Source: an uncultured Planctomycetia bacterium (lineage in GTDB: Bacteria > Omnitrophota > Gorgyraeia > 2-02-FULL-51-18 > JAGOUK01). From it: a stretch of DNA of 64,000 bases. The number at the start of each line of letters is the position of its first letter. Positions within the stretch are counted from its first letter, which is position 1. Location: assembly GCA_964430735.1 (NCBI GenBank), contig CAYSFB010000005.1, positions 110,390 to 174,389 on the forward strand, written 5' to 3'. A model generated the notes under the pieces. The model did no database searches and had not been told where the DNA came from. It worked only from the letters and a program-made list of their open reading frames with translations. Positions 10,393-43,300 of the stretch are shown in pieces. The position numbers were made by a program, and so were the translations under genes.

Positions 10393-10406
10393 CGCCGTTT
10401 CGGGGC

Positions 10407-10416
10407 GTGATAAAAT
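10407..10416 (+). promoter_or_regulatory. extended -10-like element GTGATAAAAT overlapping the first ATG of murI; this implies a leaderless or short-leader transcript starting at ATG 10424
   Basis: The motif is identical to 9240..9249. Confidence 0.35.
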
Positions 10417-20689: not shown

Positions 20690-22390
20690 ATGTCCTCAAA
20701 ATATCTGATCAGGAGCATTGCGCTCACTTTATCCATACTTTTCCCAATTCATGATCTTTGTTGGGCGGCCGCGTCGCGCCCCGGAGAAGCGGTTCCCGCC
20801 GCGCTTCCGGTCCCTGTTCCGACGGTTCAGGCCCTGACCGCTGATCCGCACCGCATCGAATTGCCGTCCGCCAGCATCCATCTCAAAGACGCCCGCCCCG
20901 GTACTGACGGCCGGCTTTTTATCCTGATCGAAGACCCCCACGCGAATTACGGCGGTCAGAAAAATATCTCCGCGGGCTTGAGCGCGCTTGCGCGGACGTA
21001 CGGAATCAAGACCGTCTTGCTGGAAGGCGGCGACCGCAAGGCGAATCTGGATGCGCTCAAGCCTCTGGTCGGGCCGCGCGAGCTGAGGATCGGCGCGGAG
21101 CAGCTGTTGCGCGAGGGTATTTTGAGCGGTCCGGAGCATTTGAGTCTGACGGGGGATGAGAAGATTGATTTTTACGGCGTCGAGAACGCCGCGCATTACC
21201 GTGCCGCGCTCCTGGCGTATGCGCGCGTGGCGGATCTGCGTAAACCGGCCGGCCGGGATCTGCACGCCGTCCGCAATGCGCTCGAAGCGCTCAAAGCCCG
21301 GCTTTATCCTGACACGCTGTTGGATTACGAAAATGACAAACGCTTGAATGCCGACTCCGATCCCTCGCAGATCGACCGGTTGTTCGATCTGGCCCGCAAG
21401 GCCGGCGCCGGGCTCGAAGCGTTTCCGTCGCTTGCGGCTATCGACCGGATCCGGTCCGCACAGTCCCGCATCGACTTCCGCGCCGTGAACCGGGAGCAGG
21501 AAAATCTTTGTGCCGCGCTTCACGCGACGCAGCATGCCGACGAGGCCGATTCGCTCGCGCGGGAGATCGGCCGCACGACTTCGCCGATCGAGCTCAAGCG
21601 CCTGATCGACCGGTTGCTCACGCTGCGGGGACACGTTGAGTACAACATGTCCCCGAATCTGGCCGCATACTCGGCTTATCTCGACTCCTTCAAGTCGATC
21701 GACTGGGGATCCGTGCTCACCGAATCCGAAGCGCTCGAAGCTCTGTCGTACAAGTCCCTCCTCGCCGACCCCGACGCCCGCAAAGTCGCCGTGCTCGACA
21801 TTTACCTGCGCTGGATGCAAAAAGCCTTTGACCTCGCGCTCACCTCCCGCGAGTTTGAACTCCTGAAGAGCAATCGTTCTCAATTTGAGGCCGGAGCATG
21901 GACGGGATTTTTGGAGAAAAAATCCGAAGCGCTCGGCATCCGGGACCTGCGCATCCCGAAGCAGCCCGCCTTTGACCGCGCCTGGCCTTCGGTCCGCGCT
22001 TTTTACTCCCTCGTAAACCTCCGCGACCGCGCCCTGCTCGAAAATGCCGGCAGGATCCTCGAAGAGCGCGGGGAAAAAACCGCCGTCCTCGTCGTCGGCG
22101 GTTATCACACCGAGCATCTTAAAAAACTCATCCAGAAGTCCGGCTCCGGCTGGGCGGTGCTCACTCCCCAGGTCCAGGCCGCGACGGACCGCGGGCAGTA
22201 CGAAAGACTTCTCCTGACCCCGCTCAACCGTTCTGCCCGCCGTGACGCGGCGTCTGCTGATCCCGTCAACATCGCTGTCCCGCTTCTCGCCGGCAGTCGT
22301 CTTTCCGCAGGTTTTGATCTTTCGGTAGAGCGTTCTTTGGGATCGGCTCCGGCTGCGGCTCTGCGCACTCTCCGTGCCGGCGAGCCCCGA
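20690..22390 (+). other. module 1 (567 aa): signal peptide plus conserved N-terminal domain shared with the ORF at 61729; tentatively TraB/ChaN/Tiki-superfamily-like
   Basis: ILIEDPHANYGGQ...VLLEGG...VLVVGGYHTEHL parallels VLLQDPHTNESGQ...VYTEGG...ALIAGGYHAPSL in the second gene. The superfamily call is tentative. Confidence 0.35.
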
Positions 22391-25300
22391 GGCGCGCGAA
22401 TGGCCGCTTCGGGAGACGTCGTGAGTCAGAGCCGTGCGGCAAAAGAGGCCGTTCTTCTGGAAATGAATCAGCTCCGAAAAAGCGGATTTGATTCATGGCC
22501 CCTGAGCCAAAGACTGGATTGGCTCAAGTCCTGGCAGGATCGTGAAGTCATCGAGACGTGGGATTGGAACGAACTGATGTCCGAGGCAGGTCTGACATTC
22601 GGGCCAGGTCGATCCGTTGTGCCCGATGTCGGTGAGCGGGGGGTCGGCGTATCCGTATTTGATAAATTCAAAATTCTCAGTATCTCCGATGGCGCCGGTT
22701 CCGCTCAGCCCCGCTTCCTGACCGTCAACGGGTCGCTGCATGATTGCATCGCCCTGACTCTTTTTGACCCGGCCGGCCGCACCGGAGTTCTGTTTCACCT
22801 GCACTATCTCCAAGACGCAGATACGGTCATCTCCCGAGCCATGACCGAACTGGCTTCGCAGAGGTCCGGCGCAGAGCCGCGTTGGCAGGCTCGATTGGCC
22901 GGCGGTTGGTCGGAACAGTCCGAAGATCTGGCGATCCGAATCCTGCGGGCTCTGGAGCAGCGTCAGATTCCCGTGGAGAGCATCGACATCCTGAGCAGAC
23001 CTGCCAGGCCGATCCAGGATGCGGTCGACAGCGCGTACGGCGGGGTTCGCCCTGTTTTGGATGTCGCGACGGGAGCGCTTTATGAGATTGCCCCCGGTCG
23101 ATCCGGCGCGCGGATGGCATCGAGGACTTTGCGGGCGGGCACGGCATCAGTCTTGTTTGCCGTTTTGGCTAATGCCTATGTGTATGCGTTGTTCCGACAC
23201 CACCTTGCGGGAGCCCTCGGCCCCTGGACGTCGGGAATCGTCGGATTTGTTGTCAACACATCCATCTTCTTAACCTTTTCGGGCTGGTTTAGGTGGAGCC
23301 ATCTATCCGAGGAAGCCGCGTTAAACAAGGTCCGGAAGGTTCGGTTGGACTTGATTCGTCGGGCAACACTTGCGGAGGACTGGAATCTGGTGCGGGCCCT
23401 CAAGCGCACGACACCCAAGATCGTACTCCCATCCGAGTATTCCAAAGTCGTTTACGGCGGTAAGCAGAATACCGTGAGCAAGTCGGGCAAAAAGATACGG
23501 CACATACTTCTCACGCCCGAACTGGCGGTCTCTGCGCAGGCGATCCGCTATCTTCTGGTGCGCCGTTCGTTGGGTTTTGATTACGATGAACAGGTTGCAG
23601 CCATCCGCTCCTCAGGGCGCGGCGACATCCCGTTCTTTACCGTTTGGCAGCGCTTTTATTGGGTGAGCTACTCGGACCTGGAGACCTTAAAGCGCGCCCA
23701 TATGTATCCGCTCTTCAGCGTTTACATTCTGGTTCACGGATCGCTCATGAATACCGTTGCCCTGACGGCCTCCATCGTGCTCCGGCTCTACCATCAGGTC
23801 TTGGGCGGCGCGAAGCGGGAGGGGGATATCATCACCGTCCCGGCTCTTGTGACCGGCGTTGCGGTGGCGACATATGCCTTGGGTTTGGTTGCCGAAACAG
23901 GCGGAAGGATGCTGATTGCCGCAGCCTCGGGCGCCAATCCCTGGGATGGGCTGGCCCATATCCAAATGTCGTTCGCCGGGCATCTGGCGGTGATGAATTC
24001 GCTTTTGTCCTACGTGTATCTCAGGGAAACGATCGCCAAGTTTGATTTGGATGCCCAGCCCGAACGATCAGGTGCGCGGTTGGCGGACAATCCGGCGGTT
24101 CAGCAGGCGTTTGATCCTTCGCGCGGTATGCTCACGGCCCAAGACCTGAGCGTGGAAGCGGCACCGGCTGTTTTGGCCGGACAGATCCGGATGGTGATGG
24201 AAAAAACCGGCAAGAGCAGGGATGTCATCGCCGTATTTGATCTCGACGATTATGGGCATCTTCGGAAATCCGCCGTGTCGGCCGGAGCCTCAATGACGGG
24301 CATCATCTCGCATGAGAGTCTCGCCATCCGCATGGCCGGTTTGGGCATGCGCTATTTCCAAAGCATGCTCATGGAACGCGACGCGGACGGCCGCGTGGTG
24401 CAGATCAACGTCATTCCACGGCTCATTTCTGCGGACGCCGACGCCAGACGATCCAGTTTCGGGCGGGCGGTTCTGCTAATGACACAAGTCGTTCGTGAAC
24501 TGGGTCTCGACCCCTCTCAGATCGTTACGAACGACTTTTTTTCCGTGAACAGCGCTTTTAAAACCACGCTCGACCGCGTCGCCGCTCATGCGGTGCAAAA
24601 CCAGTCCGAGATCAGGGAAACCGGTGCGCGGTTGGCGGATCGCGCGGAGTCCGCTGCCTTGAGCGATGCTGAAAAATCCAGGCTCACCCCCGAGTATCGG
24701 ACCGCGGCAGAGTTTTTTGACAACTTCGAACGTCTGAAGGCCGCTCATCCGGATCATAAGTGGATCGTGGTTGGCCGGCACATGGAATCCACGTCGAACC
24801 TGTTCCGATATCTTCAATCCTACATCACGTATTCTCCGCCGACCCTTCTGGGTCTGTTGCAGCGGTATTTTATGGGCCGGTTCTTGTCCGCCAAGGGAAT
24901 TCAGTTCGACCGCATCATCGCAAGCGATCTGGAGCGCGCCCACAGCCTGGGTCAAAAAGTGGCGGATCAAAACTCCGCGGCTGTTGAAGTGAAGCGGAGA
25001 CTGCGGGAGGTCATGACGATCTCTCTCGGCGGCATCCGCAGCGACCTGTTCGACGTCGCGCGCGAAGCGCAGCGGCTGCGTTTCATGTCTCACCCCGAAA
25101 ATTACGACATTCCGGGATATTCCGGAAGGGAAGTCACGACCTATATCCAGGAGCTTTTTTACAAAGACGTTCCGGGCCATGCGGCGCGGACGACGTTTGT
25201 CGCGACGCACGGCATGACGATCATTCTACTGCTCCATTATCTGCTGAAGATTCCGTTCGAGAAGTATGAAGCCGTTTTTAAAATGACCGGCAATTCGCCC

Positions 25301-28300
25301 AATGTCGGCCTGAGCGTCTTCTCCTACGACCCGTTGGAACGCTCTTGGAAAATGTGGGTGTATGCGGACAACTCTTATCTGCCCGCCTGGGTCCGGCCCG
25401 AAAGTACGGGCGGGTTCTTCCGCATGTTGGAACGGATTTTTTACGTCGGTCAGGGCATTTACCGCATCGGTTTGCGGATATTTGGGCATCAGGGTTATGG
25501 TCAGCCGGATTACTTTCCGCTGGTCCTGCCGTTCGTCCGGCCTTCCTCAGCCCAGATCCGGGTGCTCAGCAAGATGGCGCATCACGGCGTTTCAAAGGTC
25601 CGCCCATCCGGAGATCAGGCAAGCCCTCCGTTCCAAGGCGCGCGTCTGGCGCGCGGCGATCGGGAGCGAATGGAAAACGTGCTCCGCCGCGTCCGTTACC
25701 GCAGGGGAGTCCTGCCATCGCTGAAGGTGGCCGCTCAATTGTACGACGAGCATGGCCGGTATCTTTCCTCCGGCACCAACCGCACGGGCAGGCCGCATGC
25801 AGAGCCGGATGCCGTGCTCAATGCCTTTAAGCGCAAGATCCGCGATTCTAAAAAACAGGGAATAGATTCGGAGAAGATCCACCTGGCCGAAACAGTTGCC
25901 GACTATCTGCATCTTCGGTGGAGGACGCTGGATCGCGATACGGATGAAGTGACTTTAGCCCTGCTGGATTGGCTGAATCTGGCCCTGAACACCCCTCTCA
26001 AAAATGCATCGTTTTACGTGAGTCTGGATCCCTGTAAGCAATGCGCCGGGCTGCTGAGCCGTTTGGGCGTCCGGCAGGTTTTTTACGGAATGTACGATTC
26101 GAATCCGCTTCAGGACGGAAGGGGCCTCTCCATTTTGAATCAGAACGGCATTCAGGTGCAAAACCATCTGATGGAGCGCTCGTTCGAAATGGAGAATGCC
26201 TTGTTTGTCCGCGCCGTCAAACTCATGCCGGCGCTCTACCTCATGCTGCACAATGCCAGGAAAAATCTTTTCGCAGCATGGTTCCGGCACACGTATGCGG
26301 ACCGCTTATCCGGTCTTGAGCTCACGCTTCGGAAGCATCGTGAAATCGCCGATATCCTCGACGCGCCGCCGAATTCCCCCGTGCTGAAGCGGAACCGGCT
26401 TGATTGGCGGCCGATTCGACATCACACCACGAACATCGCCCAGATGCGGATGTCGATGCTCACTCGCAGCATCGTCAATCCGGATTCCAAAAACACCCGG
26501 GTTCTTTACGGAGGGGCCGGCACCGATTTGACCGGTGTTTTGGAGACTTTTGGACCTGCGGATGTTGCCATGGTTTCGTATTACCACGGGTTGCAAAAGG
26601 AGGATTTGCAGACTGCGATCGAGATTCTGCAGAATTCAGGCGAGCAACCGCCTCTACTGGGCGACCGGCGCGCTGACGAGTACCGCCGTGTAAAAACCGT
26701 CTATGGTTTTGGAACCCGGCATTATCTCGAAAACCGTCACGAAATCACCAATGCGCTCGCCATCGAATTGGCTGCGGTCGGAGCGGAGCGGGCCCGGGTT
26801 GATGTGGAATCGGAAGTGCCGAGACTTATTTTTGAATGTCCGGATCCATGGACCGGAAAACTCAGGACGGTTTCTGTGCTTTTCATCGAAGCGGATATTA
26901 CTGAGTCTGACCGGTATCCCGACGCTTTAAAGGAATGGATGCGAAGTGGGTTCGACGGATACTTTCAAAAAGCGGGGCTCAAGATCGCCCAGGCCTATTT
27001 GACTCGGCCCGAATATCTCCGCGGCATCTACGACCGCATGAAGCCGGAAGGGTATTTTGCAACCGATGATACGGCGTATGTGGAGTTCGATCCAGATGTG
27101 GAGGCGGACATCTTCCAGGACTTTTCGGACTATTTTCCGGTCAAGGACGGCATCCGGAGCATTTATCCCGATGGGCTGGGGGAAGTGATCCAGGCTCGCA
27201 TTGCGGGAGACAGCGCCTTTTCAAGCCGCTCCGAGTTGACCTTGCGGCAGATGTACGGCTTTTATCTCCGGCTGCGGCAAAAAAGCGTCGGCGCTCGCCT
27301 GGCCGCGCCCGGGGAAATCACCGACCTGCTGCCGGATCCGGCTCAAGCCCTTCCGTACGAACAATTGATGAGCAATTACAAAGGCTATTTGAGCGAAGGC
27401 TTGATGCGGGACGTTCTCGGGACCTACACGGCGCATTTTGTCCCCGCTTCGCTGGATCCGCAGGCCCGGGAGACGGATGCGCGGATCGTCCGCGAAAATG
27501 CCGGAAGAGGTTACGCCGATCTTCAGGTGACGCGGGTGCTGGACTACCACCGCTACATCGTTCCGATGATCCGTCAGTGGAAGACGGAACATCCTGACAA
27601 GCGTCTTCTGGTGCTCAACGTGGACACCCACGACGATCTGGCGACGTCTTATTCGTGGGTCAACGACGCGAACTGGGCGTATCGGGCCAACAACAGCGGT
27701 TTGGCCGACGTCTATCACGTTTATCCCGACGAGAATTTCCGCGCGTTCGAGTCAGACGCGCCGACGCAGCCCAAGGCGTTGAGGGATCTGGTGCTGAATC
27801 CCGAGATCAATCCGAATAGCTATGACGAGGTCTGGGTTACCATCGATTACGACTACTACTCCGCCCGCAGCGGGTATTACGCGGGCTCGTACAACCTCGA
27901 CCGGTTCGAGAGAGATCTGGAGCTGCGGGCGCTGACGGGTTTTTTCAGGCAAAACCGAATCCGGGTCTCCAAGGTTGTCCCGGTCATTTCCAAAGAATAC
28001 CTCTATCACATGGAGCCGGCCGATCAGACGAAGTTCGTGGAGGAATTGACCCTCCAGATCCATGAAGCATTTGAGCAGCTCTCCCGCAGCCAGACCGATT
28101 ATCCGGCCTCAGACAAGCCGTGGACGGTCGAAGTCCCCGAGGGAGAGTCCTATTGGGAATTCGCGATGCGCCGCTCGCTGGGTATGGGCGCGCGGCTGGC
28201 CGGCGATCCGACGGATCAGCATGGGCGCATCGTCGAGTTGTTGGAAAAACCGGACACGCGCCTCGTCCGCATGCCGAGCAACGGCTTCGACCGGTACCGT

Positions 28301-31300
28301 ATCGAGGCCGCGGACGGCGGCGTTTTGTACGAGTTGGTGGGCCAAGAGTCCGGCTCCGGTCTTGCGCCTGTGTGGCTGATCGAGCCGATCGACCTTTCCC
28401 GACTCGAAGCCGGCGACGCGCGGATCATCCTCGACTTCCGCACCGAACCAGAAAAAACACAAGCCTTCGATGCTCTGGTCCGCAGCAAGGCGGAGCATGC
28501 TGCGGCCGCAGAGGATCCAGGCGTGCATGCGGATTATCTGCAATCCTCCATCAAGAGTTATCTCGATGCCGGGCTGCTGAATCCTCCAGCCTCTTCGACC
28601 GGCGATCTTTTGGCCGATCACTTTAAAGGAGCGTCGGTCCTGAATATCGGTCTGGAAACGGATGAGTACGGACAGTTGCGGGACAAAAATATCGTGACGC
28701 ATCTCAGGTCGCGCGGAGTGGACGCCGTCGGCGTCGATCCGCAGGCCCCGAACCGGCCGGATCTGGGACTGGTGAACGGTCTCGCGCAGAGACTCGACGT
28801 CCTGCCAGCCGATCGGTTCGATTGGGCGGTGAGCATCGGTCTCTTCGATCCCGGATTCATCGAAACACGGTTCATGAACGGCCGCCGCGCTTTTACCGAC
28901 GAGAGTTATCGCTCCGTGGCGAACGGACTTCGGCGCGTACTCAAGGACGGCGGACGCTTCCTGGTCAACACTTACAGCAATCCGAACGACAAGCTGACGC
29001 AGGCGCTCATCGACCGCGGATTCGTGCGGATGGAACAGGTAGACGGAACCGGAACCAGGATCTATATCAACCGCAAGCCCAAGCCCTCTCTCATGGAAGA
29101 CCCGGCTGTCCGCCGTTTTATGAAAAAGTTCGGCCTCGACGGCGCGCGGCTGTCATCCGCCCTATCAGATGTCATAGATGGCCGGGAAGGAGCTTACACT
29201 TCTCTTTGGGTGGAACTTTATCCGGTCATCATTCGGAAGATCGATTCGTTTGTCCAACGTGCCGGCAGCCCGACGGATCTGGACGTCAGCCGCATACAAG
29301 ATCACGTTGAGCAGGGTCTGCGGCGCATGATCCTGGAACAAGTCCGTTATCGCGAGAACATCAACTATGCTTTGATCCACACCATGATCCGCCGGAGGAT
29401 CATCGACAGTGCGAGGTCTCAGACCGGATTCAAGCGGGCGCGTCAAGTCCGTACTTACTCATCTGATCCGGCTGATATGACGGATCTTTGGCGCGACGAT
29501 CGACCGTCTGCGGAATCTGCTGCGGGTGATTCCACCGGTCCTTCGGCGGTAGTGAGCCAGTCCTTGGACCGGATGCTGAGCTTGGCCATTCAAGAGTATT
29601 TGGACGCTGCGCATGCCTACAGTCCGGACAAGCCGCGGAGCATCCTCAATCTTCTTTTGGGCGTCGGCCGGGATCGGGCGATCCAGATCAACAGGCCTTT
29701 ATTTGCGGCTGTGGCAAAACAGGCAGGCATATCCCAATCCCGGGTCTCTCAAATATGGAGCGGATATCTCAAGTATATCGTGGCCCATCCATCACATCGG
29801 CAGGAAATGATATCGCTGGTTCAGTATTATCCGTCGTGGCTCAATCCTCGAGATCGACGCTTCATGGGACATCAACGGTTGGGTGCGCGGCTGGCCGGCG
29901 TTTCGGAGCAGGATTTGAACGGGTTCGTGAGGTTCATCCTGTCAGGCCGGTTCGAGCCTTTTGATCCGGAGCACACGCGCATCATGGCCCGGGCATCGGA
30001 ATCGGGATCCGATGATCCGGTCACGGCCATGATTCTGGAATCGACCGACCAAGGACAGCAAAAATTGCAAACGCTGGCGGTGGTGAACCGCGAGGGCCGA
30101 TTGGTCGCGGGGGCTACCGTCAGCATGTGGTTCACCGGCGGGAAGAAGTGGCTGAACGTCATCCGCATGGACACGTATGAAAAAGGCCGGAGTTACATGC
30201 GCCGAGCCGCGCGGCAGTTGCTGGTGCAAGGCCAGATCGATCTGTGGAGGTCCAGCGACAATCTGTCCGCCGCCGGAATCAAGCTGCATACCAGCTTCGA
30301 GGGAGACGCCGAGATCGGGGTGCGCCGAGACCTCGGGGCGTACGATCTTTATCTGAAGCCGCAGACGGGCGCGCGGATGGCGGACGCTGATCTGACCGGA
30401 GAGCTTCGTTGGAAAAGCTGGTTCCGGCCGTGGATGCTGGATCTCGAAAAACCGGAGCAGCTGAATCTTTTCTTGCGCCGCCTGAATTTTCTTTCGGGCC
30501 TTCCGGGGTATCACGCTTCGAGAATGCTGGTTTCGACGGCTGTCCCGCTTCACATTTTTCAGGTGCCCGTTTTTAAGGCGAACTCCGCGTGGATGATGGG
30601 CTTCATGGCCGCTCACCTGATTCTGACGGCAAGGGGTAAGCGGTTCACGGAGGAGCAGAATTTGCGGATGCAATACGGCCGACCGGTGCTGCAGACATCC
30701 GGAGCGTTCCGTTACACCCAGCATCCATTTTATCTGGCCTATTTTTCGGTCTACCTGACACACTTTTTCATTCAGCCCAACTGGTTCTCGTTCGGGGCGA
30801 TGCTGAGCATGGCCGCTTTTACCGCGCTCCGGATCGTCGTCGAACAGCACGAAATGTGGGCCCTGCACGGCAATAAATATCTGGCGTATTGGCAGTCCAC
30901 CCCCATCCTGTTTCCCTGGACCCGGCCCGGCGGCCCGTCCGGCGCGCGGATGGCCGGTGATTCGGATCGGGCCAAGCGGATCCAGTCCGGACTCACCCGG
31001 GCATTGGCGGAAAACGCACGATTGCTCAGAACCATCGCTCGGGAAGGCGCGATGCCGGAAATCGATCTGGAAGAGTCGGTGCGCTTCGAATTCGGCGACG
31101 ATGGGCGCCTGGGCAATCTAGGGCTGATGGATCGCGGGCGATACACGCCCATCGGCAGAGAAATTGCCGTCCGCATCATCCGCGCAGGAGCCCTCATTCT
31201 CAGCGAATATTCTGATCGTTACCGGCTGAAGGACGGAAGTAAAACGGTCTACGTTCGAATTCAGGAGCCGTCCCTCTCACCGGCGGAAGAGGACGGCCGC

Positions 31301-34300
31301 GAACCGGGTGACTCCAGTCTGATCGAATCGGCCCGCAAAGAAATCCAGATTGCATGGAACGGGCTCATGGATCTCTCCAAAGACTGGACGATGGATCATC
31401 CGCAGTTGAATGCCTTGTCACATCTGCTGTCAGGCCTGATGACCTTAAACTCTCATTTGAGACAAATGATGAACAACGGCCCGCCCAGCGCCGAATCTAC
31501 CGCCCTTATCCACGAACGAATCCAAAATTGGGCGATCCCTCAAATCAAGGGCGCCATGAGCTTCCTGACTCAAAGCGATCTCCGACAGGCATTGAGCCCT
31601 TCTCAAAGAGTCGCTCTTCTGGGAGATGACGGACCGCTTCTCAAGGCCCAGGCCTATCTCCGCCGGTTTCTCGGCGCGCGGATGGCGACCGCGCGTTTTG
31701 TGGAGGATGGATGGACGGTGCTGCGCCGGCTGACCGACGCGGATTTTGGAGCAGGCGCGTCGCCTGAAGCTCGCCGATTTATGAGGGAGTATTCCGCCTT
31801 CAAGAACGGGTCCAAATGGCATGCCCAGCGCTTTGCTCATGAGATCGTTTCGCTGATTCGAGAAAAGGAATCGCTCTCGGACCTCTCGGAATGGGCAGTT
31901 GTCACGCCGCGCGTGATGAGCCGGAAGACCCCGGCTGTGCACGCTCTAGGCGAAAGCATCGCTTCCCAACTTGGAATCACGCACGTTCCCCTGTGGAGGA
32001 ACTCGCCTCGCGAAAACGGCGAGCATTACTCCCGCATTGCCACGGCCGAGGAGCGGATGCGATTCAAAACAGAATCCGCCGGCGACCTGATACTTTCCGA
32101 AGAGTTGAGAGGCAAAAAAATCCTGCTCATCGACGATCTCATCACGACGGGAGCGACGCTGCAGTCGGTGAAGCGCTTTTTGGAAGAATCCAACGGCGTC
32201 CGGAGCATCCGCGTGTACGCCGCCGCTTCGCTGGAGACCGACCGTGCGGACCTCGAATACGAACTGAACACGAATCTCATGAACCTGGCTGCGTTCGAGC
32301 TGTTGGACGCGATTTGGTCGGCATTCCTGCCCACCCATCTTGCGCTTCAAACGGTTCTGACACATGTCCATTTTGACCGTCTGGTGAGCGCCCTGTCTTA
32401 TCCGAGTCTGCAGGCGATCACCCGCGCAGCGCATCGGTATTTTACCGGATTCCGGAATCCGACACCCGAAGAACAGCGACGAATGGATGTCGTCGGATCG
32501 GAACTGAAACGCCGCGCCAAAGAGCATCGGGAAACGGCCGAGCGAATCGACGTCCACGCGTCGTTTCGCCGCGTTCCCGGACTCGGGTCGGGGATTCCCG
32601 TCGCGTTTATCGCCAAAGGCGACGGCGATGCCGCCTATCGTGCCTCACGGATCGAGACGCGCAATACCGCTAATCCGGGATCTCCAGCACAGGCTTTTGG
32701 TAAGCGCCGCGAATTCCGAGAAAACGGCTTTGTGGCTGTCGGCGAATTCAGCGACAACGGTTCCGTATCACACCAGTGGAAAATAGAATTATGGGACCCC
32801 AGAGGATTCGCCCAAAGAGGGGATGAAGCGATCCTGGGACTGCAGGACGAAATCAGGATCGTTCGTATGTCCGACGGATCGCTTGTGCACACGATCCGGC
32901 ATCCGAAGTTAACATCCGTACACACCATCGAACTGAACCCCCGCGACCCCAATCTGGCGCTGATCACCGCGACGGGTTCCGACAGGATCCTGGAAATCGA
33001 CCTCCGAGACGGGTCGATTGTTTGGGAGTGGAACCCCTGGAGGAACGGATACGGCGTCAACAAGCTCGGCTTGAGGATCTTCGAGGACGGCGATCCGCTG
33101 CCAGCCGGAGCGGCCGTCATCGGATTTGAAGAAGCGAAACGCAGGATGGAATCCGGTGAAGCGGTGCGCGAAGAGGAGAATCTGGTCCATGTTGTGAGTT
33201 TTGACCGCCCCGATGCGATCCTCGAAAAATGGGAAAAGACCGCGAGTCCGAACTGGGCCGGATACGGTCCCGACGGAACCATTCTTGCGACCTTGTTCCG
33301 GGTTAATCAGGCCGTGCAGATCGACCGCGCCGGCGGCGTCCGCGTGCTCTATGACGATCTTCGACGCCCGCACGCAATGATCCGGTATAAAAACGGTTAT
33401 CTGATTCCCGACACGATGAACGGACGGATTGTGATCCTTAAGGACGACTTCACGCTCGATCAGGTTTATGACTTATCCACCTTTCCGAACGAGCGCAACC
33501 TTCCGCATCGTTCGTACGAATGGCTCCAGTTCGCCCATCCGATATCGGACGATCTGATCGCGGTGGTCGATTCTCGCCGGAACAAAGTGTTCGTGCTCGA
33601 TCCGGAAAATTCTTTATATTCGGAATATCCCTATGACCCGAATCGAACGATGCAGGCGGTCCTTCCAGTGGTCGATGCGTCGGCCGCGCGGCTGGCGGCT
33701 CCGAAGACGCACGATTTATCCGATACGATCGGGAAGCAGATCGATGCTCTGGACGAGTTCGCCAGGCAGTCTTCGGTCCGAGTGCAGTACGAGAGCGAGC
33801 CGGAGCGCATCGAATTCGTTGATCCGAATTACGAAGAACGGTCCGGTCAATTCCAGCTGGGATCCGCGATCTTCCACGTCTTGGAAAACGCCATCAAATA
33901 TTCTCATCCCGGAGGCGCGGTCGCGGTCCGGACCCAGCGCGAGGCGGATGGAACGATCACCATCTCGATCCGCGACAGCGGGATTGGGATCGAAGAACCC
34001 TATTTATCCAATGTTAAAAAGGGGGTGTTGTATTACCGGCACCCCGCCGCCCAGCGCCACGCGAGAGGCAGCGGCCGCGGTCTGGTCGTTTCCAAGGAAA
34101 AAATCGAGCGGGTTTACGGAGGGACGTTTGAGATCCAAAGCGGAGGCTGGTCCGACGGCACCTCCGTCACGATGAGGTTCCGACCCGGCAGCCCGTCCGG
34201 CGCTCGGTTGGCCGCGTTTCAGGCGGACGCGGTGGCCGCGTTGCTGCGCATGGCGAACCAAGAACAGGATCCTGACAACAAGAAGTCGATCGCGGACTAT

Positions 34301-37300
34301 GCGGCATCTCTCGCACGGACCCGACTTCTTTTTGAGGGCCCTCCGATCGGCATGGATCCGGAGGAAGCCGCCGTCCGTGCCGGCCGGATCGACCGGATGT
34401 TGTTCGAAGCCGCCAAGAACCGGCGCAGTAAATTTGACAACAGCCCGCTCGGCACCGATTTGAGTCAACGCTCGACGCATTGGAACGATTACCGGGTCTC
34501 AATAGACCGCTTCTTTGGATATGTATCTGATCGCGATCAGGAGGAGAAGAGCGCATCCGGTGCGCGTCTGGCGGACGGCGGGAATAACGCTGGACGCGCG
34601 GGAGATTTAGCCAGGGCTTCCGACCCTTTGAGGGAATTGGAGAAGTTCGAAGAGATCTCCCTTCGGATTTACGATTCAGGGCTTGACGTCAATTCAAAGT
34701 CCATTCAGTCCGAGGAAGAGCTCAAGATTTGGGGCGACTTGCACAGAGCACAGTCCGAAGCGCTTCGCTGGATATTGCTTGATATTGAAAAAAATCCGAT
34801 CGGCCATGATGGAGAATTACTGCGATCAGCGATTATACGCGCCAAGGACCTCAACGGTAACATCACCCGACTTTTGGGACGTACCGCATGGCGAAAATTC
34901 TCCGTCTCCGACTCTATTCAGCTGGCGGCTGTCAAAGCATTGAATCAGACTTTTGAGCAGAATAAATTAAATATCGAAAGCCTCGCCTATTATTTGAGCG
35001 CGCAGGTGTATGACCCAAAAAGCGTTCAGCCGGAATGGATTCGTGAGCTGGAACAGTCGCTTTTGGTTTATCAGTTGAACCATCTTTTATTTTATCTGAC
35101 GGAATATATCCAGGAAGACGAGGAATCCATCCGGGGTGAGAAGCTGATGCTTCTCAGGTCCATTTTGAATTGGGTCGGCGGATCCACTGTGATGCGGCAG
35201 TATCTCAGCGCAGATATGCCGGACGGGCAAGATGAGGATATCCAGCGTCTGCAAGACCTCCTCGCTAAGGCCCGGGCCGCAGTTGACGCTTCAGGCGCGC
35301 GGCTGATGGAAACATATGCTGCGGCATTGGCGCGTTTGAATGCCGGAACTCCGGACGTCGCGACTTCCAAAAATACCGGGATGGATATGTCTTCCAAGTT
35401 CAGACATCCGCAGCTGATCGGCGAGTTGAAGCGGCTCAGAGATGAATGGGAAAAGAAGCCCGTGCTTTTTCCTCGTGAAGTGGTTGTCATCGGTCCCGGA
35501 TCGAGTTATCCGTCCGTTCAAAACGCGGATAAGCAATCCTATCAAATGGTCGAAGCGGCAGTCGGATTAGGGTTGGGCAACAGCGGCATCCGTTTTACGG
35601 TCCTCGACGAATTGGAAAGGGTGCTGGATGTTGTTGACCAAGCCCGGCATCCCGCTCTGATTTATGAGATCGAACCCTTCGACTTGAAAAAGATCACTGA
35701 CCCCGAATCGGATGCGCGTTCCGCGTATACCGTTTTTGCCTCAGAATTAGAAGAGTACCGGCAGCCGACGTCCTCCGGCGGCGAACGCTACGTCATTCCG
35801 TTCGACAGGTTTTCACCCCACCCCATCGAGAGGTTCCGCGGTCACGTCGAAAAGCTGGAGTATCCGGAAGCGTCGGCGGACCTGATCGTGGCGACGCACG
35901 TTTTTCAGTGGGCGTTCGAGTCCGACAAGACGATGGTCAATCGGTTCGATCTCATGGCCAAAGTGATCAGGTCGCTGCGTCGGGGAGGGGAGCTGATCAT
36001 CGACCAGGCCACATTCAGTTATGTGCAGGACGACGCCCGGCGGCGTCACTTCGAACGCGAAATGTCCAACCGGGACCTCTCTGTCGACGTCCGCCCGAGC
36101 GGGAACCTGGTGGTGATCCGCCGCATCGGCGCGCGCCTGGCGGCGAAGAGCAGCTTTTTGGCGAAAAGGATCCTGGGCCAGTATCGAGGCTTGGATGCCA
36201 GGATACGACGGCTTCAGAACGCCTACCCGAACGGCTATCGCGGATCGATAGACCAGGACGCGAGAGGGGAGCAGGTTCGCGAAAAATTCATCAGACTGAT
36301 CCGGGTCGGCCGCAGCGTCCGTCAGAACCTGGAGATCATGGGCTTTTCAGACATTGCCGGTGAACTTCATGCGAGGGTCAGGAGGCTTATCGAAGCGATT
36401 CAGAACAGCGAAGACGGGGTGTTACCGGCTCAAATGCAGCAGATGAAGATGATGCTTGCTTTGGAACATGGAGATCTCGATGCCTTCCAGTCCGATCTGG
36501 AGGGGTATCTGACGGGTAAGAACGTGCCGGTTTTCCGTGATTTGAACGCAGATGACCGCCGTCTTCAGATCGAATTCATGATTCGACAGGCGGGCGATCA
36601 CTTGTCGGTTTGGGGAAGCGCTTCCGAAAAAATTCTGGCGGAGCTCACGTCCCGGGCAGTTGCCGCGCATGACCATCGATCGATTCGTTCGATCTCTCGG
36701 GCGAGAAAATACTTGAAGGGCTGGATCAAGGCCGCCAGTGAAAAACCGCTGACGTATCCGGAGCGATTTAGGATACCCAAAGGGTACTCCGACTGGAGCA
36801 GGGCATACCCCGCCTATCAACCGCCTTATTATGTGGCGCTCGAAGTTCTGAGAAGCATTTATGGCGCGAGCCCGAACGGATATGCGGATCCGGAGGATTT
36901 GTCGCAGCTCCAGGGTAAATTCGCCAGCTACGAGGGGCCGGTGCGCTTCGAGACTTTGAACGGCAAGCAGTATCCCCTGAATCCCCGGGGAAGGCATGGA
37001 ATTCGCGGTCGGGGGCTTTTGGGCCGCTGGGGAGCCAATTTTGCAGCGGATCCTTTGGTCACCCGCATCAACCCAACAACGAATCGGCTGGAGTTCTTGG
37101 CGGTTCAGCGTGAGGACACGGGCCAGTGGTCGATTCCCGGAAGATTGATGGCACGTGATGAAGATATCCCAACCGCATTAAAAAATGCCATTCAGCGCAA
37201 AACGGGATTGGCGCTGAGTTTTGAGGGTGCTGAAGAAATTTATCGGGGTTACGTCGAGAACCCCAGAAATACCGATCACGCCTGGATTGAGACGGTGGCG

Positions 37301-40300
37301 ATGCATATTCATCTGACAAAGGAACAAGCGGTCGAGACCGACAAGGTTCCCATGCGGGGAGAAAGCGGAAGTCTCGTGAAGTCCGTTCAATGGCTGGAGC
37401 CGACCCCTGCCGTATTAAGCCATCTCTATGCCGATCATGCCGACCTCATTCGGTCGGTGCTAAACGGGTCTGAGCGTACAGGCGCGCGGATGGCGGAGCG
37501 GACGGCACAAGAGGTTCTCCGCAAACACCTGGATCGGCAATTGGGGGCCGATCAGATCGCGCGGGTCGAGTATGACTCGAGCGTGGCTCCGTTTCATCTG
37601 ATGCTGGCTTTTGGTCGTGATGGAAAAAACATCGGGTTGGCGGTCGTCAAAGACGGTGTTTACGCTCCGCATTCCATCGAGTTGGCGGAGGGCGGCACGC
37701 GATTTGAGGCGCATCCCCATCGCGATGGTATACAGGTGGTCACGTTTGACGGACCGACCGACGCCGATATCGTGGACGGTTGGATCCTTGGCAGGATCGG
37801 GACGAACGGCGAATGGGGCATCGAAAGCATCATCGATAATCGCCGGCCGGTTCAAGTACCGCTGGCCGTTTTGTTCTCGGACTGGCCGATTCTGCCGGCC
37901 AGCCCCGGCGGTGACGACGGCAGGGAATCTCCGGCCCGGGTTCAAGCCGCCGTCATGGATTCCTGGAGGGCCCTCGCGTCGGATGATGTGCAAAAAGCAC
38001 GCGCCATACTCGACAGACTTCCGCCGGATCGCACAGCTTACAAGATCATCGGGCCGGATGATTTGGCCCGTGTCCGCAGCGTAGTGAACGGGACCACCTA
38101 CCGTCAGGCCGGCTGGCTGCGGATGGAATTCTTCGCAACGGATGGCGTGCGCCGGCTGGGTCTCTCCGAAGCGGATCTGCGGCCATCCGCCAACATTTTG
38201 CCGATCGAGAATGTCCTTCAGCATGTGTTGACCAGGGGCGAAAAGGCGGTATTGCTGCTGTACCGCGAGCCGGGTCCCGCCGGAGCGATTCGATTCTTTT
38301 GCTTCGATTCGGGTCCCGGCATGGACATCGATCAGGTCGTAAATCACGGGTATCGCGATCCCGAAACGACGATGCTCGGCAGAGCCATCCAGTTCATGAT
38401 CATGTCCCGGTCCAAACATTGGATTCTGGGGTCCCGCAACCAGGTTTGGGATCAGGATCAAAAGACCGTTCGTCCCATGCACATGAATATGCCGGAGCGC
38501 GGCGTGTTGTTCGCGTCGCATTTTGCGCAGCCGTCGGGGGCGCGGCTTGCCGATGCGGAAGACGACCCGGAGAGCGTGCTGTCCGATTCTTCCGCCTTGC
38601 CCGCTGAGGGCGGAGCGATGATCGGCAAGAATCCGGCCGTGACTCCGGATGAGCGCCGCCGTGTGCTTGCCGAAATTCTCGGAGACGCCCCGCGGCTGGA
38701 ATCGCTTGCCTGGTCGGTGGTAAGGAACTCGGGATTTTTGCAAGACACCTCGCTGTATGCGGATGCGGTTCAGGAAGTGCTTCAACACGTCCAGCGTAAT
38801 CGACAGACCATTCTCGACCACTATCAGCCCGAGAGCAGGTCGACTCCTCCGGCTGACTGGGTCATGGGGTATATGAATCTCCGGCTTCGGGACGTACGCC
38901 GCAATCAGCTGCGGTATCAATCGCGATTCAAGCGGCAGGCGGATATGAGGTCCGACAGCCGGAACGAGGACGGGGACGGCTTGAGCGTGCTCGACAGCCC
39001 GGCCCCGACGCCGGACCCGAGCGACAGCATCGCCGGACGCGAGAGCGTGATTCTTTCCGGATTCTTTGTTCAGGCGCTGTCCTCTGATTTGCGTGAGATT
39101 TATGAGGCGTATTACATCGAGCATAAGACGATGGCCGAAATAGCCCGGCTGACAGGACTTCCGGAAGGTACGGTCAAAACACGTCTCAAGGCCGTCCGCG
39201 ATCGCATCAAAGGACACTTTTTGAACGGCGACCACGTGGAACGGGATAATCCGCGCGAAGAAGCGCTCATGGATTACCTGCGCCGCCTCCGCCGAGAAAA
39301 GAAGCTCGACGAAGCCGACTGGCGACTGGTCCGGCTGTTGATCTCGGGACTGCCTGACGAAGAGATCGTGCTTGCGATGAGCGGGGAGTTCGGGTTGGCC
39401 CGGGAAGGGGTCCAGGCCCTTGCGGAGCATGTGATTCGGCTCATTCGAGCGGAAGACAGACCAGTTCTCGAGGAAGACATCCGCCCGACACCCGACGAAC
39501 TCGAAGAATACAGCTTCCTCGAAACGCTGCGCAGGGTCCGCAAGAGGAACAAGCGCCTCCACGCCGAGCATATGGATTCGATGATCCGCAAAAGCACTTC
39601 TGCCGCACGGCTTGCAGAAAAATCGGAGTCCATGGACCAGCTTTATGAAAATCTGGGTCCTTACGGCCGTTATGCGGCCGGCGCTCTCACCGGATTTTTT
39701 CTTCTGCCGATGCAGACGTTCGCTCCGATGTCGGCCGACACGATCTGGGTGCATCGGAGCATCGGGGTTGCGGCCGGACTTGCGGCGGCATGGATCTGGG
39801 GCTGGCGCTACAGACGCAAGCACCGGCAGGCTGACGGGAAAGGCGCCGTCATTCCGGCCACCGCGGTCGAGAGAAGGCGTTATGGGTGGGAGGATCTCGA
39901 GCGGGAAGGGTATTCGGTCGTGATCGAGGAAATCCGGGGTGATGGGCGCCAAGAAACAACGCTGTCGGGCTACGTGACCCAAAAGTCACCGGGCCAAAAC
40001 GTCCCCCGAAGGTTGGAAGGGTCGCACTTCCTCATTTCGATAGACGGCTTTAAAAATATCTACATTCACTTTTTTTACCCGGAATTCCCCATGCCTAAGA
40101 CTGAGGCAGAAAAGGTCGGCCGCGGCGCGGCCCTGCTGCGGCATATTCTGGACCCGAAGAAGTATGCCGGTTACAGGATTTTTGCCGATGCAAGTCCCGA
40201 GTTTATGAGCTCATTTTCCCGGATGACGGACTTCCAGCCGAGTGTGAGGAGCGGGGACCGCGAAGCCTTCGATGCCTTTGTCGTCAATAAAGTCAGAGAT

Positions 40301-43300
40301 TCGGCGGCAGAGGGCGCTTCTCCGCATCGTGTTCTGGAGTTGAGTCGAACGACGCTGTACGGCGTGGTTCCTCCTCCTCAAGCCGCCCGGCTGGCAAAAC
40401 TGGACCGCCCCGCGGCAATTCATAAGGAACTTCAGGCGCTCGGCCGGGCGGCGGCGGGAAAAAGGTTCAGCTGGACGTCCAGGCGCATGGGCCGACTTCG
40501 GACCGCCGCGTCGATGCGGCTGTTGCCGGCGACGTCGAACCTGTTGGACATCGGCCGCGCGCATCTTCTCGATCAGAATGACACGCACAACCCGGACCCC
40601 ATGAACACCCTCATGACCCTGGCCATGTTCATCCTGGACCGTCCGCGGTCCGCGTCAGCAAAGAACCTGGCGGCGCTCGAGGCGCTGGTCGAACGGTACA
40701 ACCGGGACGTGCGCGAAAAGCGGATTCCGAACCGGTTCGGTTATTTGAGCGTGCCGCTTCTGTTTGTCATCAATTTATCCCCCTACTTCGAAGACACGGT
40801 CAACAACCACACGGCGTTCCGTCGGTTGAACCGAAACCTCGCGCTGCTGCCGGGCAAAATCGGAATGCAAAGTGTCGCCGCGGATCTGGCGTTCAGCGCG
40901 ATCCACGCCAACTGGAATATCGAGCCGGTGGACATGGAATCTTCCTACATGTCCTTCGTGCGCGCCGAACTCGCGCTGAAAATGGGCGACGCCTCGCCGG
41001 AACTGGCTTTGGCGCTCGCCTTGTTTTTGGCTTCGATGCAGCCCGCCTTGCACGCGGGTCAGGGCGGAGGGTCGGCCGCGCAAGAAGACGATGCCCGCAT
41101 GGTCAAAGCCGCGCGCAGATATCTCGGTGTTCCGGCAAGACGCCAGCGTTTGATAGCCTGGCTGCGAATTCAAATCCCCACACTTCAATCGCGTCCCGAG
41201 CTCGCGAGAGTTCATGAGATCGGACTGCGGCACACGATCGACGCCGTCAAATTTGTGGGCAGATACCTGTCCGCGCCGTTGGACGAGGTGATTCTCCGGC
41301 CGTCAGGTTCTGATTTTGACATCCTGATCCAAGCCCTTTTGAGCATCAAGCGGCGGGACGACAGCTTCCCTGAATCCTCCAAAAAGCGGCTCAATCTTTA
41401 CCGTACGTCGGCGGAATCGGGCTCAACTCGACTCCACTATGTCGCCAATTACCTGGCATCCGCCGCGCGGATGGCGACAAAGACAATGTCTCCCGTGGAT
41501 CAAGCGGTTGCCGCGGTCGGCTATTACCGGACGGCGGCGGTCGATGCCGCCACGGTTCCGAAGTTGAAAAAGCTCAAGTCCTTTCTGTACAAGCCGGCCC
41601 AAGAGTATCTGAAAGAGTTCATTATGCTGACGGATGATTTTGAGCGTTACGTACGCGATCAGAAGTGGTCGCAGGCTACGACGACCCTCATCGATATCTG
41701 GGAATTCGTCCGGCGTAAAGACGCCGTGATTTTTAGGGATGCGTTAGGCCGCCAATTTTCGCTGCTCGACGTTCAGAAGACACTCCTGATCTGGGCTCAG
41801 GGCATGAGAAGCGCCGGCCGAGGCGACGCGTATTTTAGGGCGGTTATGAAGATGATCAGGGAACTGTTGTTCAACGCTTCCTGGTACGGAGGCGTTCCTT
41901 CGGCGAGCATGTTTGTGGATGCCCCCAAACCCAGCGTCGAACAGCAAATAGGCGACATTTTGGATTCGGTGATCCCGACCGAGGAATATTATGCGCAGCC
42001 CGGAGCGTTCGCCCGTGAGAAAGAGCATCAGAGGCTTCTGGCCGCCGTGGTCCGCTGGATTCATCTGGCTCGCAATGTCCTGTCGTCCGTGTACCAGATC
42101 AAGGATCTCAACCCAAGTCTTCAGGGGTATCAAACCGGGGACGACATCAACGCATTTCTCGCGGAAGGCAGTTATATCAACCAGGCACTTTCGCTGCTGG
42201 AAGAATTGAAGATTTTTTTGAGAAACCCGTCACCCGAATCCGCCGGCACGGCCGATGTCGCCGATCCGTTCATCGACAGCCCCGCCTCCGTCTTGTCGGC
42301 ATTGCGCCGCGCCGGTGTCGTCCATATGGTCGCCGCCAACGGGCGCAAGCGTTCCTTGGAGCGTGAATTGTCCTCCTTGGCGGGGACAGCCGCCGTGCTC
42401 GACGCCAAGATCACGGATCGAGCCGCCGTCATCCGATCGAAAAAAGCGGTCCGTGTCTACCGCATTCAGGATGACGCGATGATCTATGCGGGCGAGATCG
42501 ACTTCGGCCGTTTGGATTGGACTCCCGCTCCGCGTATCAGAATCGGCATTTATCCCGCCGGCGCCGAAGACCGGATTGTCGTCGACATGCCCGACCTTCA
42601 TGACCCGGAACGGTCGCGTGCCGCGCTTTTTTCACTTCGGACGGAACCGTTCGATATGGACAAAGACTTGCTGGCGTTAGGAGGGCATCCGTCCATCCGG
42701 GTCGTCAAAGGATCGCTGAAGGTCGATCGGAACGAGGGGCTGATTCGGGCATCCGTTTTGAACGGGCAAAAGGCCGAACCGGCCGAGTATCGTCTCGTCA
42801 ATGGTGACGCGGTGGATCGGTCTCCCGGCAACCTCGTAGGATCGGGAAGCGTCGAGGATATCAAGAACTTGATGCATACGCAGATCGTCGCCTTTGATCA
42901 AAACGAGGTCATCGTGGACGTCCTGGGCCGATCCATCGCCGGGGATGCGAGAGGATTCGAAGATCGAGGCGAATTGTACACCTGGTTCATACGGATCATG
43001 AGGTCGCAGCATCTGATTGACCGGGATGATGAAATGCCGCCGGTTCTGACCCACGAAGTCATGCATGACGACGGGATCTACGAGATCTACTCCCTCCATG
43101 CCGACGACAAGCTGGTTCTTACGATCCGGGAAGCCGGATCCGATCCCGACCGGGGCCGGGCGGAGGAGTCCGGCGCGCGGATGGCGGTTCAGGAATGGGA
43201 ATCTGATTTTAGAAGGATTCTGGATCTGGCCGGACCGGAAAAGCAGTCGACGGCGTCGGAAACGTTGGTTAAAGAAATGATCGGGGTATACGCGAAATCC

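Follow-up and report, generated by a model that had tools for sequence, protein, structure and literature searches.

The stretch of DNA analysed here, 64,000 nucleotides of contig CAYSFB010000005.1 and hereafter called the window, carries a giant open reading frame (ORF) at positions 20690..56023 of the plus strand, on which all features described below lie unless stated otherwise. The encoded protein of 11,777 aa consists of a leader, a conserved head, ~33 cargo segments delimited by the motif (G)AR[ML]A and a conserved tail. We find that the module containing the head represents a new family with TIKI/Ere-like features, outside every existing family model, since it has no significant Pfam, NCBIfam or PDB sequence match. 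The head very probably adopts the fold of the TIKI superfamily, and by analogy with characterised members of that superfamily it is likely to be an active hydrolase. That it is a TIKI/Ere-like hydrolase with a cis-acting role, most likely cleavage of the junctions between the segments, seems to us about an even proposition. A role as junction protease in the strict sense is put forward tentatively, and we infer it to be the single most likely specific function of the head.

The first module, aa 1-567 of the giant protein (20690-22390), ends exactly before the first GARMA junction (aa 568-572; 22391..22405). Within this module the head domain spans aa 57-511 (20858..22222), for which an AlphaFold2 (AF2) model, Foldseek and homologs point to a TIKI/Ere-like alpha/beta core that is split by a helical lobe. 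An earlier note on this DNA had placed the module at these positions and reported a second copy, and on both counts it was right: a tblastn search of the window with aa 1-570 returned one further copy, at 61930-63165, with 24.5% identity over aa 57-508 and an E-value of 2.7e-20. This copy is part of a paralog ORF (61729..64000; 757 aa within the window, continuing past the window end), in which a leader precedes the head (nt 61930-63174) and the motifs AARLA (63301-63315) and GSRLA (63346-63360) are found. Aligned with MAFFT, the giant and paralog modules are 27-28% identical. The giant protein shows the blocks LFILIE-D82-P-H84-A-N86, E112-G-G and G470-G-Y-H473, the paralog VVLLQ-D94-P-H96-T-N98, E124-G-G and G441-G-Y-H444; additional blocks common to both are G-V-E (163-165), F-Y...R-D (438-446) and T-D-R-x-x-Y-E-R-L-L (499-508).

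Both copies belong to a large family. A profile built from them was scored against 1.84 billion cluster representatives in an exhaustive HMMER search, which gave 8,047 homologous representatives at E<=1e-3 and 1,980 at E<=1e-30; word-indexed homolog searches returned no relatives, neither from a single sequence nor from an alignment of 81 sequences. The module match lies at ~residues 50-520 in all of the best 150 homologs, which are mostly very long proteins of up to 7,894 aa. Scanning one genome per GTDB species, we obtained 300 module loci, and nearly all of the best 80 are located in metagenome-assembled genomes (MAGs) of Omnitrophota, although the label of some records is Planctomycetia or Eisenbacteria. 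Up to 7-11 copies occur in single MAGs, each of them the N-terminal domain of a long ORF, and the only database name of family members is 'hypothetical protein [Candidatus Omnitrophota bacterium]'.

In the 81-sequence alignment, whose relatives are 26-37% identical to the head domain of the window, the residues D82, H84, N86, Q90, E112, E149, G163, E165, R184, F438 and Y439 are invariant in 81/81 sequences, as are R445, D446, G470, G471, Y472, H473, P493, T499, Y504 and E505 in the C-terminal part. At the level of the sequences, the conservation of the module thus goes far beyond chance. The DPHxN, EGG and GGYH blocks that the earlier note had singled out are present in both copies and invariant in this alignment. 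Its rendering of the first block as [ED]DPH[AT]N stands for the DPHxN part and fails for the residue before the Asp, which is Glu in the giant protein but Gln in the paralog; as this residue is Gln in 89% of the relatives, the block is better written [QE]D[AP]HxN. Conserved beyond what had been described there are GxE (163-165), R184, F438-Y439...R445-D446, P493, T499 and Y504-E505.

The invariant residues are arranged like the active site of the TIKI-fold hydrolases, in which a set of two His and two Glu residues defines the catalytically active members (PMC7979712, PMC6254334). This set is E47, H50, E78 and H289 in EreC (PMC7979712) and E3900, H3902, E3930 and H4030 in VvRRSP (PMC6254334); in BcR135 the catalytic residues include H85 and E113. 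The first candidate catalytic motif of the head, D82-P-H84-A-N86 (20933..20947; D, H and N invariant), directly follows beta-strand 76-82 and corresponds to the E-x-H of RRSP and the E-x-x-H of EreC (PMC6254334, PMC7979712), sharing with RRSP E3900-x-H3902 the gap of one residue between acid and His. The candidate catalytic Glu, the invariant E112 (21023..21025), is positioned after strand 108-111 and 28 residues past H84, and this spacing, also found in the paralog (H96/E124), is the same as in EreC, BcR135 and RRSP. An invariant Arg-Asp pair, R445-D446 (22022..22027), lies in the helix before the second candidate catalytic motif, the invariant G470-G-Y-H473 of GxxH type (22097..22108), which comes after beta-strand 464-470 and is in turn followed by a helix. 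H473 is the late His and corresponds to EreC H289 and RRSP H4030.

Three features of the superfamily can hence be recognised in the predicted structure, namely an acid-x(1,2)-His right after a core strand (D82-P-H84), a Glu at the end of the next strand (E112) and a late GxxH preceded by a helix with a conserved Arg (R445-D446 and G470-G-Y-H473). Judged on the model, every motif-level hallmark of the superfamily appears in the head, in the expected order and with the secondary-structure surroundings that it should have. The same motif order is seen in E. coli YbaP, which is annotated as a member of the TraB family (FHLIG-S-I-H41, LIVE67, R228-N229, VG249-A-L-H252).

A TIKI fold need not imply catalysis. 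Several proteins of this fold are non-catalytic, among them ChaN and PMT (PMC6254334, PMC7979712), and the head could likewise be a binding, anchoring or export-assisting domain, comparable to haem-binding ChaN or the inert C1/C2 part of PMT, for which the position directly behind the leader would be suitable. We consider this very unlikely: PMT is devoid of the 2His/2Glu set (PMC6254334), whereas the head keeps the four positions and the Arg invariant in 81 sequences, and invariance of this kind at 26-37% identity is typical of an active site that has been maintained.

The AF2 model of the head was built from 21 sequences and reached a predicted local distance difference test (pLDDT) value of 90.1 and a predicted template modelling (pTM) score of 0.79; the two window copies alone gave a pLDDT of only 52. 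It contains six beta-strands, at model residues 7-13, 20-26, 52-55, 104-107, 408-414 and 431-437, with helices on the flanks. In model numbering, strand 20-26 leads into D26-P-H28 and helix 31-48, and strand 408-414 into G-Y-H417 and helix 415-428, so that both conserved His residues sit just past the C-terminal end of a strand, at the strand-to-helix transition. E56 (= E112) is found immediately past the end of the strand that comes after the first helix. Between the two catalytic motifs an all-helical lobe of ~290 aa and ~14 helices is predicted (aa ~167-460, 21188..22069; model residues 111-404 according to DSSP). We also tested for an internal duplication of the two halves carrying the His motifs, which was not significant.

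A Foldseek search with the model, proposed as a check in the earlier note, covered 350,542 PDB chains and had a twofold outcome. On the positive side, chains of the Ere family appear at ranks 4, 5, 9, 10 and 23, namely EreC (6xcs, 6xcq), BcR135 (3b55) and BcR136 (2rad chains A and B), and EreC 6xcs has the highest homology probability among all matches (0.66; E 0.05). These chains fall in the family that had been predicted beforehand from the motifs. The Ere family amounts to a handful of PDB chains. On the negative side, each of the E-values is weak: no match reaches E<=1e-3 among all chains searched, and the list is crowded with long helical proteins.

Several observations weigh against a TIKI/Ere-like assignment of the head or against the function proposed for it, and those concerning the fold are considered first. 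The Ere-family matches have Foldseek E-values of 0.05-0.95 and template modelling (TM) scores of ~0.2, the latter being expected because the large mobile lobe is included in the comparison. Searches of Pfam and NCBIfam with module and paralog gave nothing at threshold, and a direct PDB sequence search with both gave nothing relevant. Hidden Markov model (HMM) searches of PDB with hmmsearch and three profiles (A3 and A4, full-length; A5, lobe-less) found no TIKI-fold chain, and hhalign comparisons with YbaP alone or with a shallow TraB profile stayed below a probability of 1%; this profile consists of 98 close YbaP relatives, all >=59% identical, a deep TraB profile not being buildable. In addition, the first motif reads D-x-H behind a Gln, not G-x-x-H. 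Finally, the NCBIfam dihydroorotase model PRK00369 receives matches of 10-15 bits from 24/81 members, located in the helical stretch aa 73-129 of the domain.

The dihydroorotase matches are almost certainly spurious, and they set the standard by which other sub-threshold matches have to be read. Counted per member, sub-threshold Pfam matches go to Cofac_haem_bdg/ChaN in 17/81, DUF5694 in 12/81 and TraB_PrgY_gumN in 1/81 cases, and to any other family in <=4; the best score is ~16 bits, as compared to a gathering threshold of 27.7. Constructs from which the lobe had been deleted gave only matches of 12-16 bits, which fall on the C-terminal parts of the ChaN and DUF5694 models, and their N-terminal half never gave a Pfam match. 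The ChaN and DUF5694 matches are co-linear, in that the R-D...G-G-Y-H region is aligned with the C-terminal ends of both profiles. Nevertheless, their recurrence is weak evidence, because the unrelated dihydroorotase model recurs likewise and homologous members are not independent.

Taken together, these results bear on the possibility that the likeness is a coincidence and the head a member of a different fold or family, in which weak matches arise spuriously from short His/Glu motifs together with a Rossmann-like beta-alpha-beta core. The lack of a significant HMM, profile or PDB sequence match speaks for it, as do Foldseek E-values above 0.01 for every Ere chain and the fact that the unrelated dihydroorotase model draws more sub-threshold matches than any TIKI family. 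Such a coincidence would have to place five chains of one very small, previously predicted PDB family within the top 23 of 350,542, bring four catalytic positions into the right order and secondary-structure context with an exact spacing of 28 residues, and direct co-linear sub-threshold Pfam matches to three families of one superfamily. We therefore regard it as unlikely. The case for the TIKI superfamily thus rests mainly on the AF2 model, on the ranking obtained with Foldseek and on the geometry of the catalytic residues, and it is by these three that the likeness to TraB/GumN/ChaN/Tiki suspected in the earlier note is largely borne out, while significant sequence or profile matches do not back it.

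Within the superfamily, the head is built like the Ere family yet lies outside it, because its motif is D-x-H instead of E-x-x-H and because Erythro_esteras is not matched: no match was found at E<=10 for both window copies, and none is among the matches listed at E<=1 for the 81 relatives. The term metallo-enzyme, which the earlier note applied to the superfamily, is not required for the head, since a metal is not implied, RRSP and Ere enzymes being metal-independent (PMC6254334). For the same reason the lack of a metal-binding site, which had been named there as grounds for refutation, is a poor criterion.

What the head might do is suggested by the composition of the giant protein. Split at the junctions, the ORF yields ~34 segments of 100-835 aa, each with at most one kind of Pfam domain, and these kinds are mutually unrelated: His_Phos_1, cytidine deaminase, an ECF-sigma-like region, an ICMT-like membrane enzyme, phosphoribosyltransferase (PRTase), HATPase_c, methyltransferase, sigma-70 region 4, HEAT repeats, HPr and helix-turn-helix (HTH). 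The HPr match (78 aa) fills a segment of 103 aa. A phmmer search with each segment showed that the head is the sole one common to 150/150 of the best homologs, while cargo segments match 0-2 of them; the last segment is common to the five closest homologs. A Pfam scan of the segments at E<=0.01 found no peptidase family anywhere else in the 11,777 aa. Module 2 (aa 569-806), which has a C...H pattern, was considered as an alternative protease and rejected, as it is conserved in 0/150 homologs and finds no Pfam support. This module (window 22394-23107) contains GSLHDCIALTLFDP...GVLFHLHY, a motif that resembles the Cys/His motif of CheD-type deamidases; Pfam does not support this resemblance, and the motif is not conserved in the 150 homologs.

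The genes near the giant ORF are of housekeeping type and encode an inositol-phosphate synthase, IspG, an SNF2 helicase, an AsmA-like protein, a menaquinone enzyme, SdhA, ThyA and DHFR. A cis-acting role of the head is favoured by this context as a whole, that is, by a universal head, many copies per genome, a constrained first junction, no other peptidase detected and housekeeping neighbours. Moreover, an enzyme needed once per cell does not have to head every precursor, whereas a self-maturing enzyme must.

The junction motif itself is far too frequent to be accidental in composition: GAR[ML]A occurs 27 times in the giant translation, where 0.1 is expected from composition, and AR[ML]A 35 times as compared to 1.5 expected. 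Examples in the window lie at 23108, 24074, 30371, 48692 and 53819. The first [GAS][AS]R[MLIV][AS] follows 60-130 aa past GGYH in most relatives. For the junctions of the window we derived the consensus GGCGCGCGGNTGGC, with conservation at the nucleotide level reading GGC GCG CGG NTG GC. Homologs without a canonical GAR[ML]A have degenerate variants such as GSRLA, ATRMA and GARLS at the place of the first junction, and when an alternative recurrent motif was sought in the homologs lacking GAR[ML]A, only degenerate versions of the same motif were found.

Cargo modules that the giant protein has in common with other giants are bounded by a junction on either side, and this applies to both of the proteins compared. 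The clearest case is aa 9332-9446 (window 48683-49027), the HPr module, which shares 93.9% identity with residues 5142-5256 of homolog P0005, the heads of the two proteins being 51% identical. Further blocks are aa 9820-10088, which match 2295-2567 of P0149, and aa 10204 onward (10204-10463), which match P0067 from 2986. An additional shared cargo block is located at aa 10612-11049. As homology blocks break at junctions in both partners, the cargo modules are, by sequence comparison, exchangeable units delimited by the junction, and the likeness of the HPr modules indicates a recent cassette exchange between giant genes.

These findings raise the question whether (G)AR[ML]A marks protease sites at all or rather recombination cassette junctions or translational signals, in which case there would be nothing for the head to cut. 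In line with this alternative, shared modules break exactly at junctions, up to a 94% identical module in proteins whose heads are 51% identical, and the codons show a bias beyond the amino-acid level even in low-GC relatives. Hereby, Arg is encoded by CGG/AGG at 54/66 sites (background 0.31) and Ala by GCG at 39/66 (background 0.29), and the GGC codon is likewise preferred at the junctions of low-GC relatives; recombination microhomology, translational pausing and an RNA signal are candidates for the cause. On the other hand, the nucleotide motif GCNMGNNTGGC has 32/32 of its matches in frame 0 of the giant ORF and zero elsewhere on the plus strand, the degenerate variants keep the amino-acid pattern, and the uninterrupted 35-kb frame argues for a single translated chain.

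A constraint by start codons is unlikely as well, since in GC-rich relatives the Leu codons at junctions track background usage (CTC 9/30). Internal translation starts at the M/L codons of the junctions were therefore rejected as unlikely, given in addition the uninterrupted frame and the lack of upstream Shine-Dalgarno (SD) sequences, the latter argument being weak, as ordinary genes of the window's genome are mostly without SD sequences too. Overall, we judge it less probable, though still worth serious attention, that the junctions are not protease sites. A role in recombination or translation and a role in cleavage are mutually compatible.

For the head as a cis-acting hydrolase we propose the following mechanism. 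The head would belong to the TIKI/TraB/ChaN/erythromycin-esterase hydrolase superfamily as a two-lobed, Ere/BcR135-like form whose helical lobe is much expanded. By analogy with Ere and RRSP, H84, E112 and H473 would position and activate a water molecule for attack on a carbonyl, with no need for a metal. The orientation of H84 would be set by D82, and R445 would serve in substrate binding or in stabilising the transition state. As an endopeptidase, the head would first free itself at the first junction and then release the cargo modules at the other junctions. Site-specific endopeptidases of the TIKI fold are known in Tiki and RRSP (PMC6254334), and a junction protease is favoured because of this precedent and because the head is present in each precursor together with no other peptidase. 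We keep this assignment tentative because the nearest structural relatives are esterases, because an exported head and cargo of cytoplasmic type are difficult to reconcile in topology, and because cleavage itself is deduced.

The remaining points against the proposed function belong here. According to the model, the closest structural relatives of the head are esterases and not proteases. Should the leader be a genuine signal peptide, the head would be extracytoplasmic, and it could reach the junctions only if most of the cargo were exported as well, although this cargo is soluble, of cytoplasmic type (sigma factor, HPr, PRTase) and poor in hydrophobic segments. In addition, ~18% of the long homologs are without canonical GAR[ML]A and possess degenerate versions only.

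Alternatively, the head may hydrolyse another substrate, for instance a small molecule or an ester or amide bond in the envelope of prey or host cells, with the junctions being cut in trans or left uncut. The esterase activity of the nearest structural relatives, EreC and BcR135/136 (PMC7979712), would agree with this option, as would the extracytoplasmic location to which the leader points, a literature that links giant Omnitrophota proteins to the attack on prey surfaces, and the intact head kept by ~18% of the long homologs in the absence of canonical junctions. We take it to be possible but doubtful. An enzyme of metabolism or of the cell surface would not have to stand at the front of each of 7-11 different precursors in one genome, the head is the sole universal module with its first junction at a constrained distance, and no alternative peptidase was detected in the giant ORF or the adjoining genes.

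The most far-reaching version of junction cleavage, which we find rather improbable, is that the Omnitrophota giants are true polyproteins, in which a Sec-type leader exports a chain of cassettes and the TIKI/Ere-fold head cuts the (G)AR[ML]A junctions during emergence. If true, dozens of separate proteins would be released, perhaps as effectors against prey or host cells. A cellular organism would then employ a virus-like expression strategy, and the junctions would double as points of cassette exchange.

The leader (aa 1-29; 20690..20776), MSSKYLIRSIALTLSILFPIHDLCWAAAS, resembles a signal peptide, with a basic n-region and a hydrophobic stretch of Kyte-Doolittle (KD) value 1.61. Throughout the family the N-termini combine a basic n-region and a hydrophobic core with a conserved end, Q[DE][IL]x[FW]A[AN][PS]. 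The leader of the giant protein ends in HDLCWAAAS (20690-20776) and that of the paralog in MQDILLAAPEG (61729-61845); a Sec signal peptide of the usual kind would not need this degree of conservation behind its hydrophobic core. To judge from its sequence features, the leader would export the giant protein, which beyond the leader has few strongly hydrophobic stretches.

At the other end, the giant protein closes with AARLASISA (55994..56020), which combines the last junction-like motif with the conserved ...[SA]A-COOH ending seen in homolog C-termini. Most full-length homologs end in SA or AA (SISA, AQSA, GGSA, EQAA), often with the last (G)AR[ML]A 9-13 residues before the C-terminus, and a tail module of ~230 aa preceding the C-terminal end is common to the closest relatives. 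The conserved ending could be a sorting or processing signal.

Elsewhere in the window, an ORF of 1,699 aa at 2084-7183 (plus strand) encodes four similar repeats of ~400 aa related to the TIM barrels of glycoside hydrolase family 2/72. It has a low-complexity stretch of ~90 aa rich in Gly/Ser/Ala/Val behind the first repeat and is devoid of junction motifs. Within 20690-56023, an ORF at 20729-22117 and many others on the minus strand, of up to 840 aa, run antisense to the giant gene. These antisense ORFs are probably non-coding by-products of a G+C-rich open frame, because homology backs only the plus frame where tested (head and several cargo segments).

Giant Omnitrophota genes, which in recent reports reach >100,000 codons, are a standing puzzle. 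Seymour et al. 2023 described the giant ORFs of this phylum as poorly conserved and with few annotated domains. Descriptions of the conserved head or of the junction motif were not found in the Omnitrophota papers of 2023 and 2026 that we consulted; in a 2026 preprint on complete genomes of the phylum, cleavage is not mentioned, and a TraB/Tiki-like domain is not mentioned either. The head now gives thousands of these proteins a conserved, structurally interpretable domain with a putative active site, and the junction motif divides the giant chains into protein-sized, exchangeable units, its occurrences being candidate cut sites. The head is a variant within a hydrolase superfamily already known, and its architectural role is new. 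As a fold assignment alone this is a modest advance; its value lies in providing a long-standing question about giant proteins with a defined putative active site and defined places where cutting may occur. The head is the best candidate for the enzyme that cuts giant Omnitrophota proteins, and the term processing protease, already used in the earlier note, is a reasonable hypothesis.

Among known systems, the Ere family (6XCQ/6XCS, 3B55, 2RAD) provides the best structural matches and likewise has a helical lobe between the N- and C-terminal catalytic motifs. EreC and BcR135/136 are two-lobed, with an alpha/beta major and a helical minor lobe, whereas ChaN, HopBA1 and PMT lack the minor lobe (PMC7979712). 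EreC E47/H50/E78/H289 are matched by D82/H84/E112/H473 of the head at a similar overall length of ~400-450 aa. In contrast to the head, Ere enzymes carry an E-x-x-H motif and a minor lobe of four helices, as compared to a lobe of ~290 aa, and they are free-standing cytoplasmic esterases, whereas the head is the first, leader-preceded module of a giant modular precursor.

RRSP (DUF5 of MARTX) resembles the head in its E-x-H...(28)...E...H arrangement and is a proven metal-independent, site-specific protease within a giant, processed bacterial protein (PMC6254334). It differs in being a cargo effector that cuts host Ras, MARTX being processed by a separate cysteine protease domain; RRSP is not among the top 50 Foldseek matches of the head, and no sequence similarity between them was detected. 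Tiki1/2, TraB/PrgY/GumN and ChaN share with the head a strand followed by xxH, twice, a Glu past the second strand and R[DN] before the last strand, but they do not have the large helical lobe. Tiki is an extracellular, membrane-tethered and metal-dependent protease.

By analogy only, the head can be compared with viral leader proteases (FMDV Lpro, potyvirus P1/HC-Pro, arterivirus nsp1), in which a hydrolase occurs once, first in a long precursor, with a recognisable junction next to it; their folds and catalytic types are unrelated, and the head stems from a cellular organism, its processing being deduced. The closest counterparts of the giant protein as a whole are the multi-enzyme 'Archaeovorin' giant proteins reported from Omnitrophota by West-Roberts et al. 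2023, whose N-terminal regions 'generally lack identifiable domains', C39/S8 peptidases in some excepted, and for which cleavage points were not available, so that splitting for structure prediction was called impossible (bioRxiv 10.1101/2023.11.21.568195). The giant protein of the window shares with Archaeovorins the Omnitrophota origin (in its case via its relatives), the many unrelated enzyme domains per ORF and the question of cleavage, and its junctions offer a rational basis for dividing such proteins before their structures are predicted.

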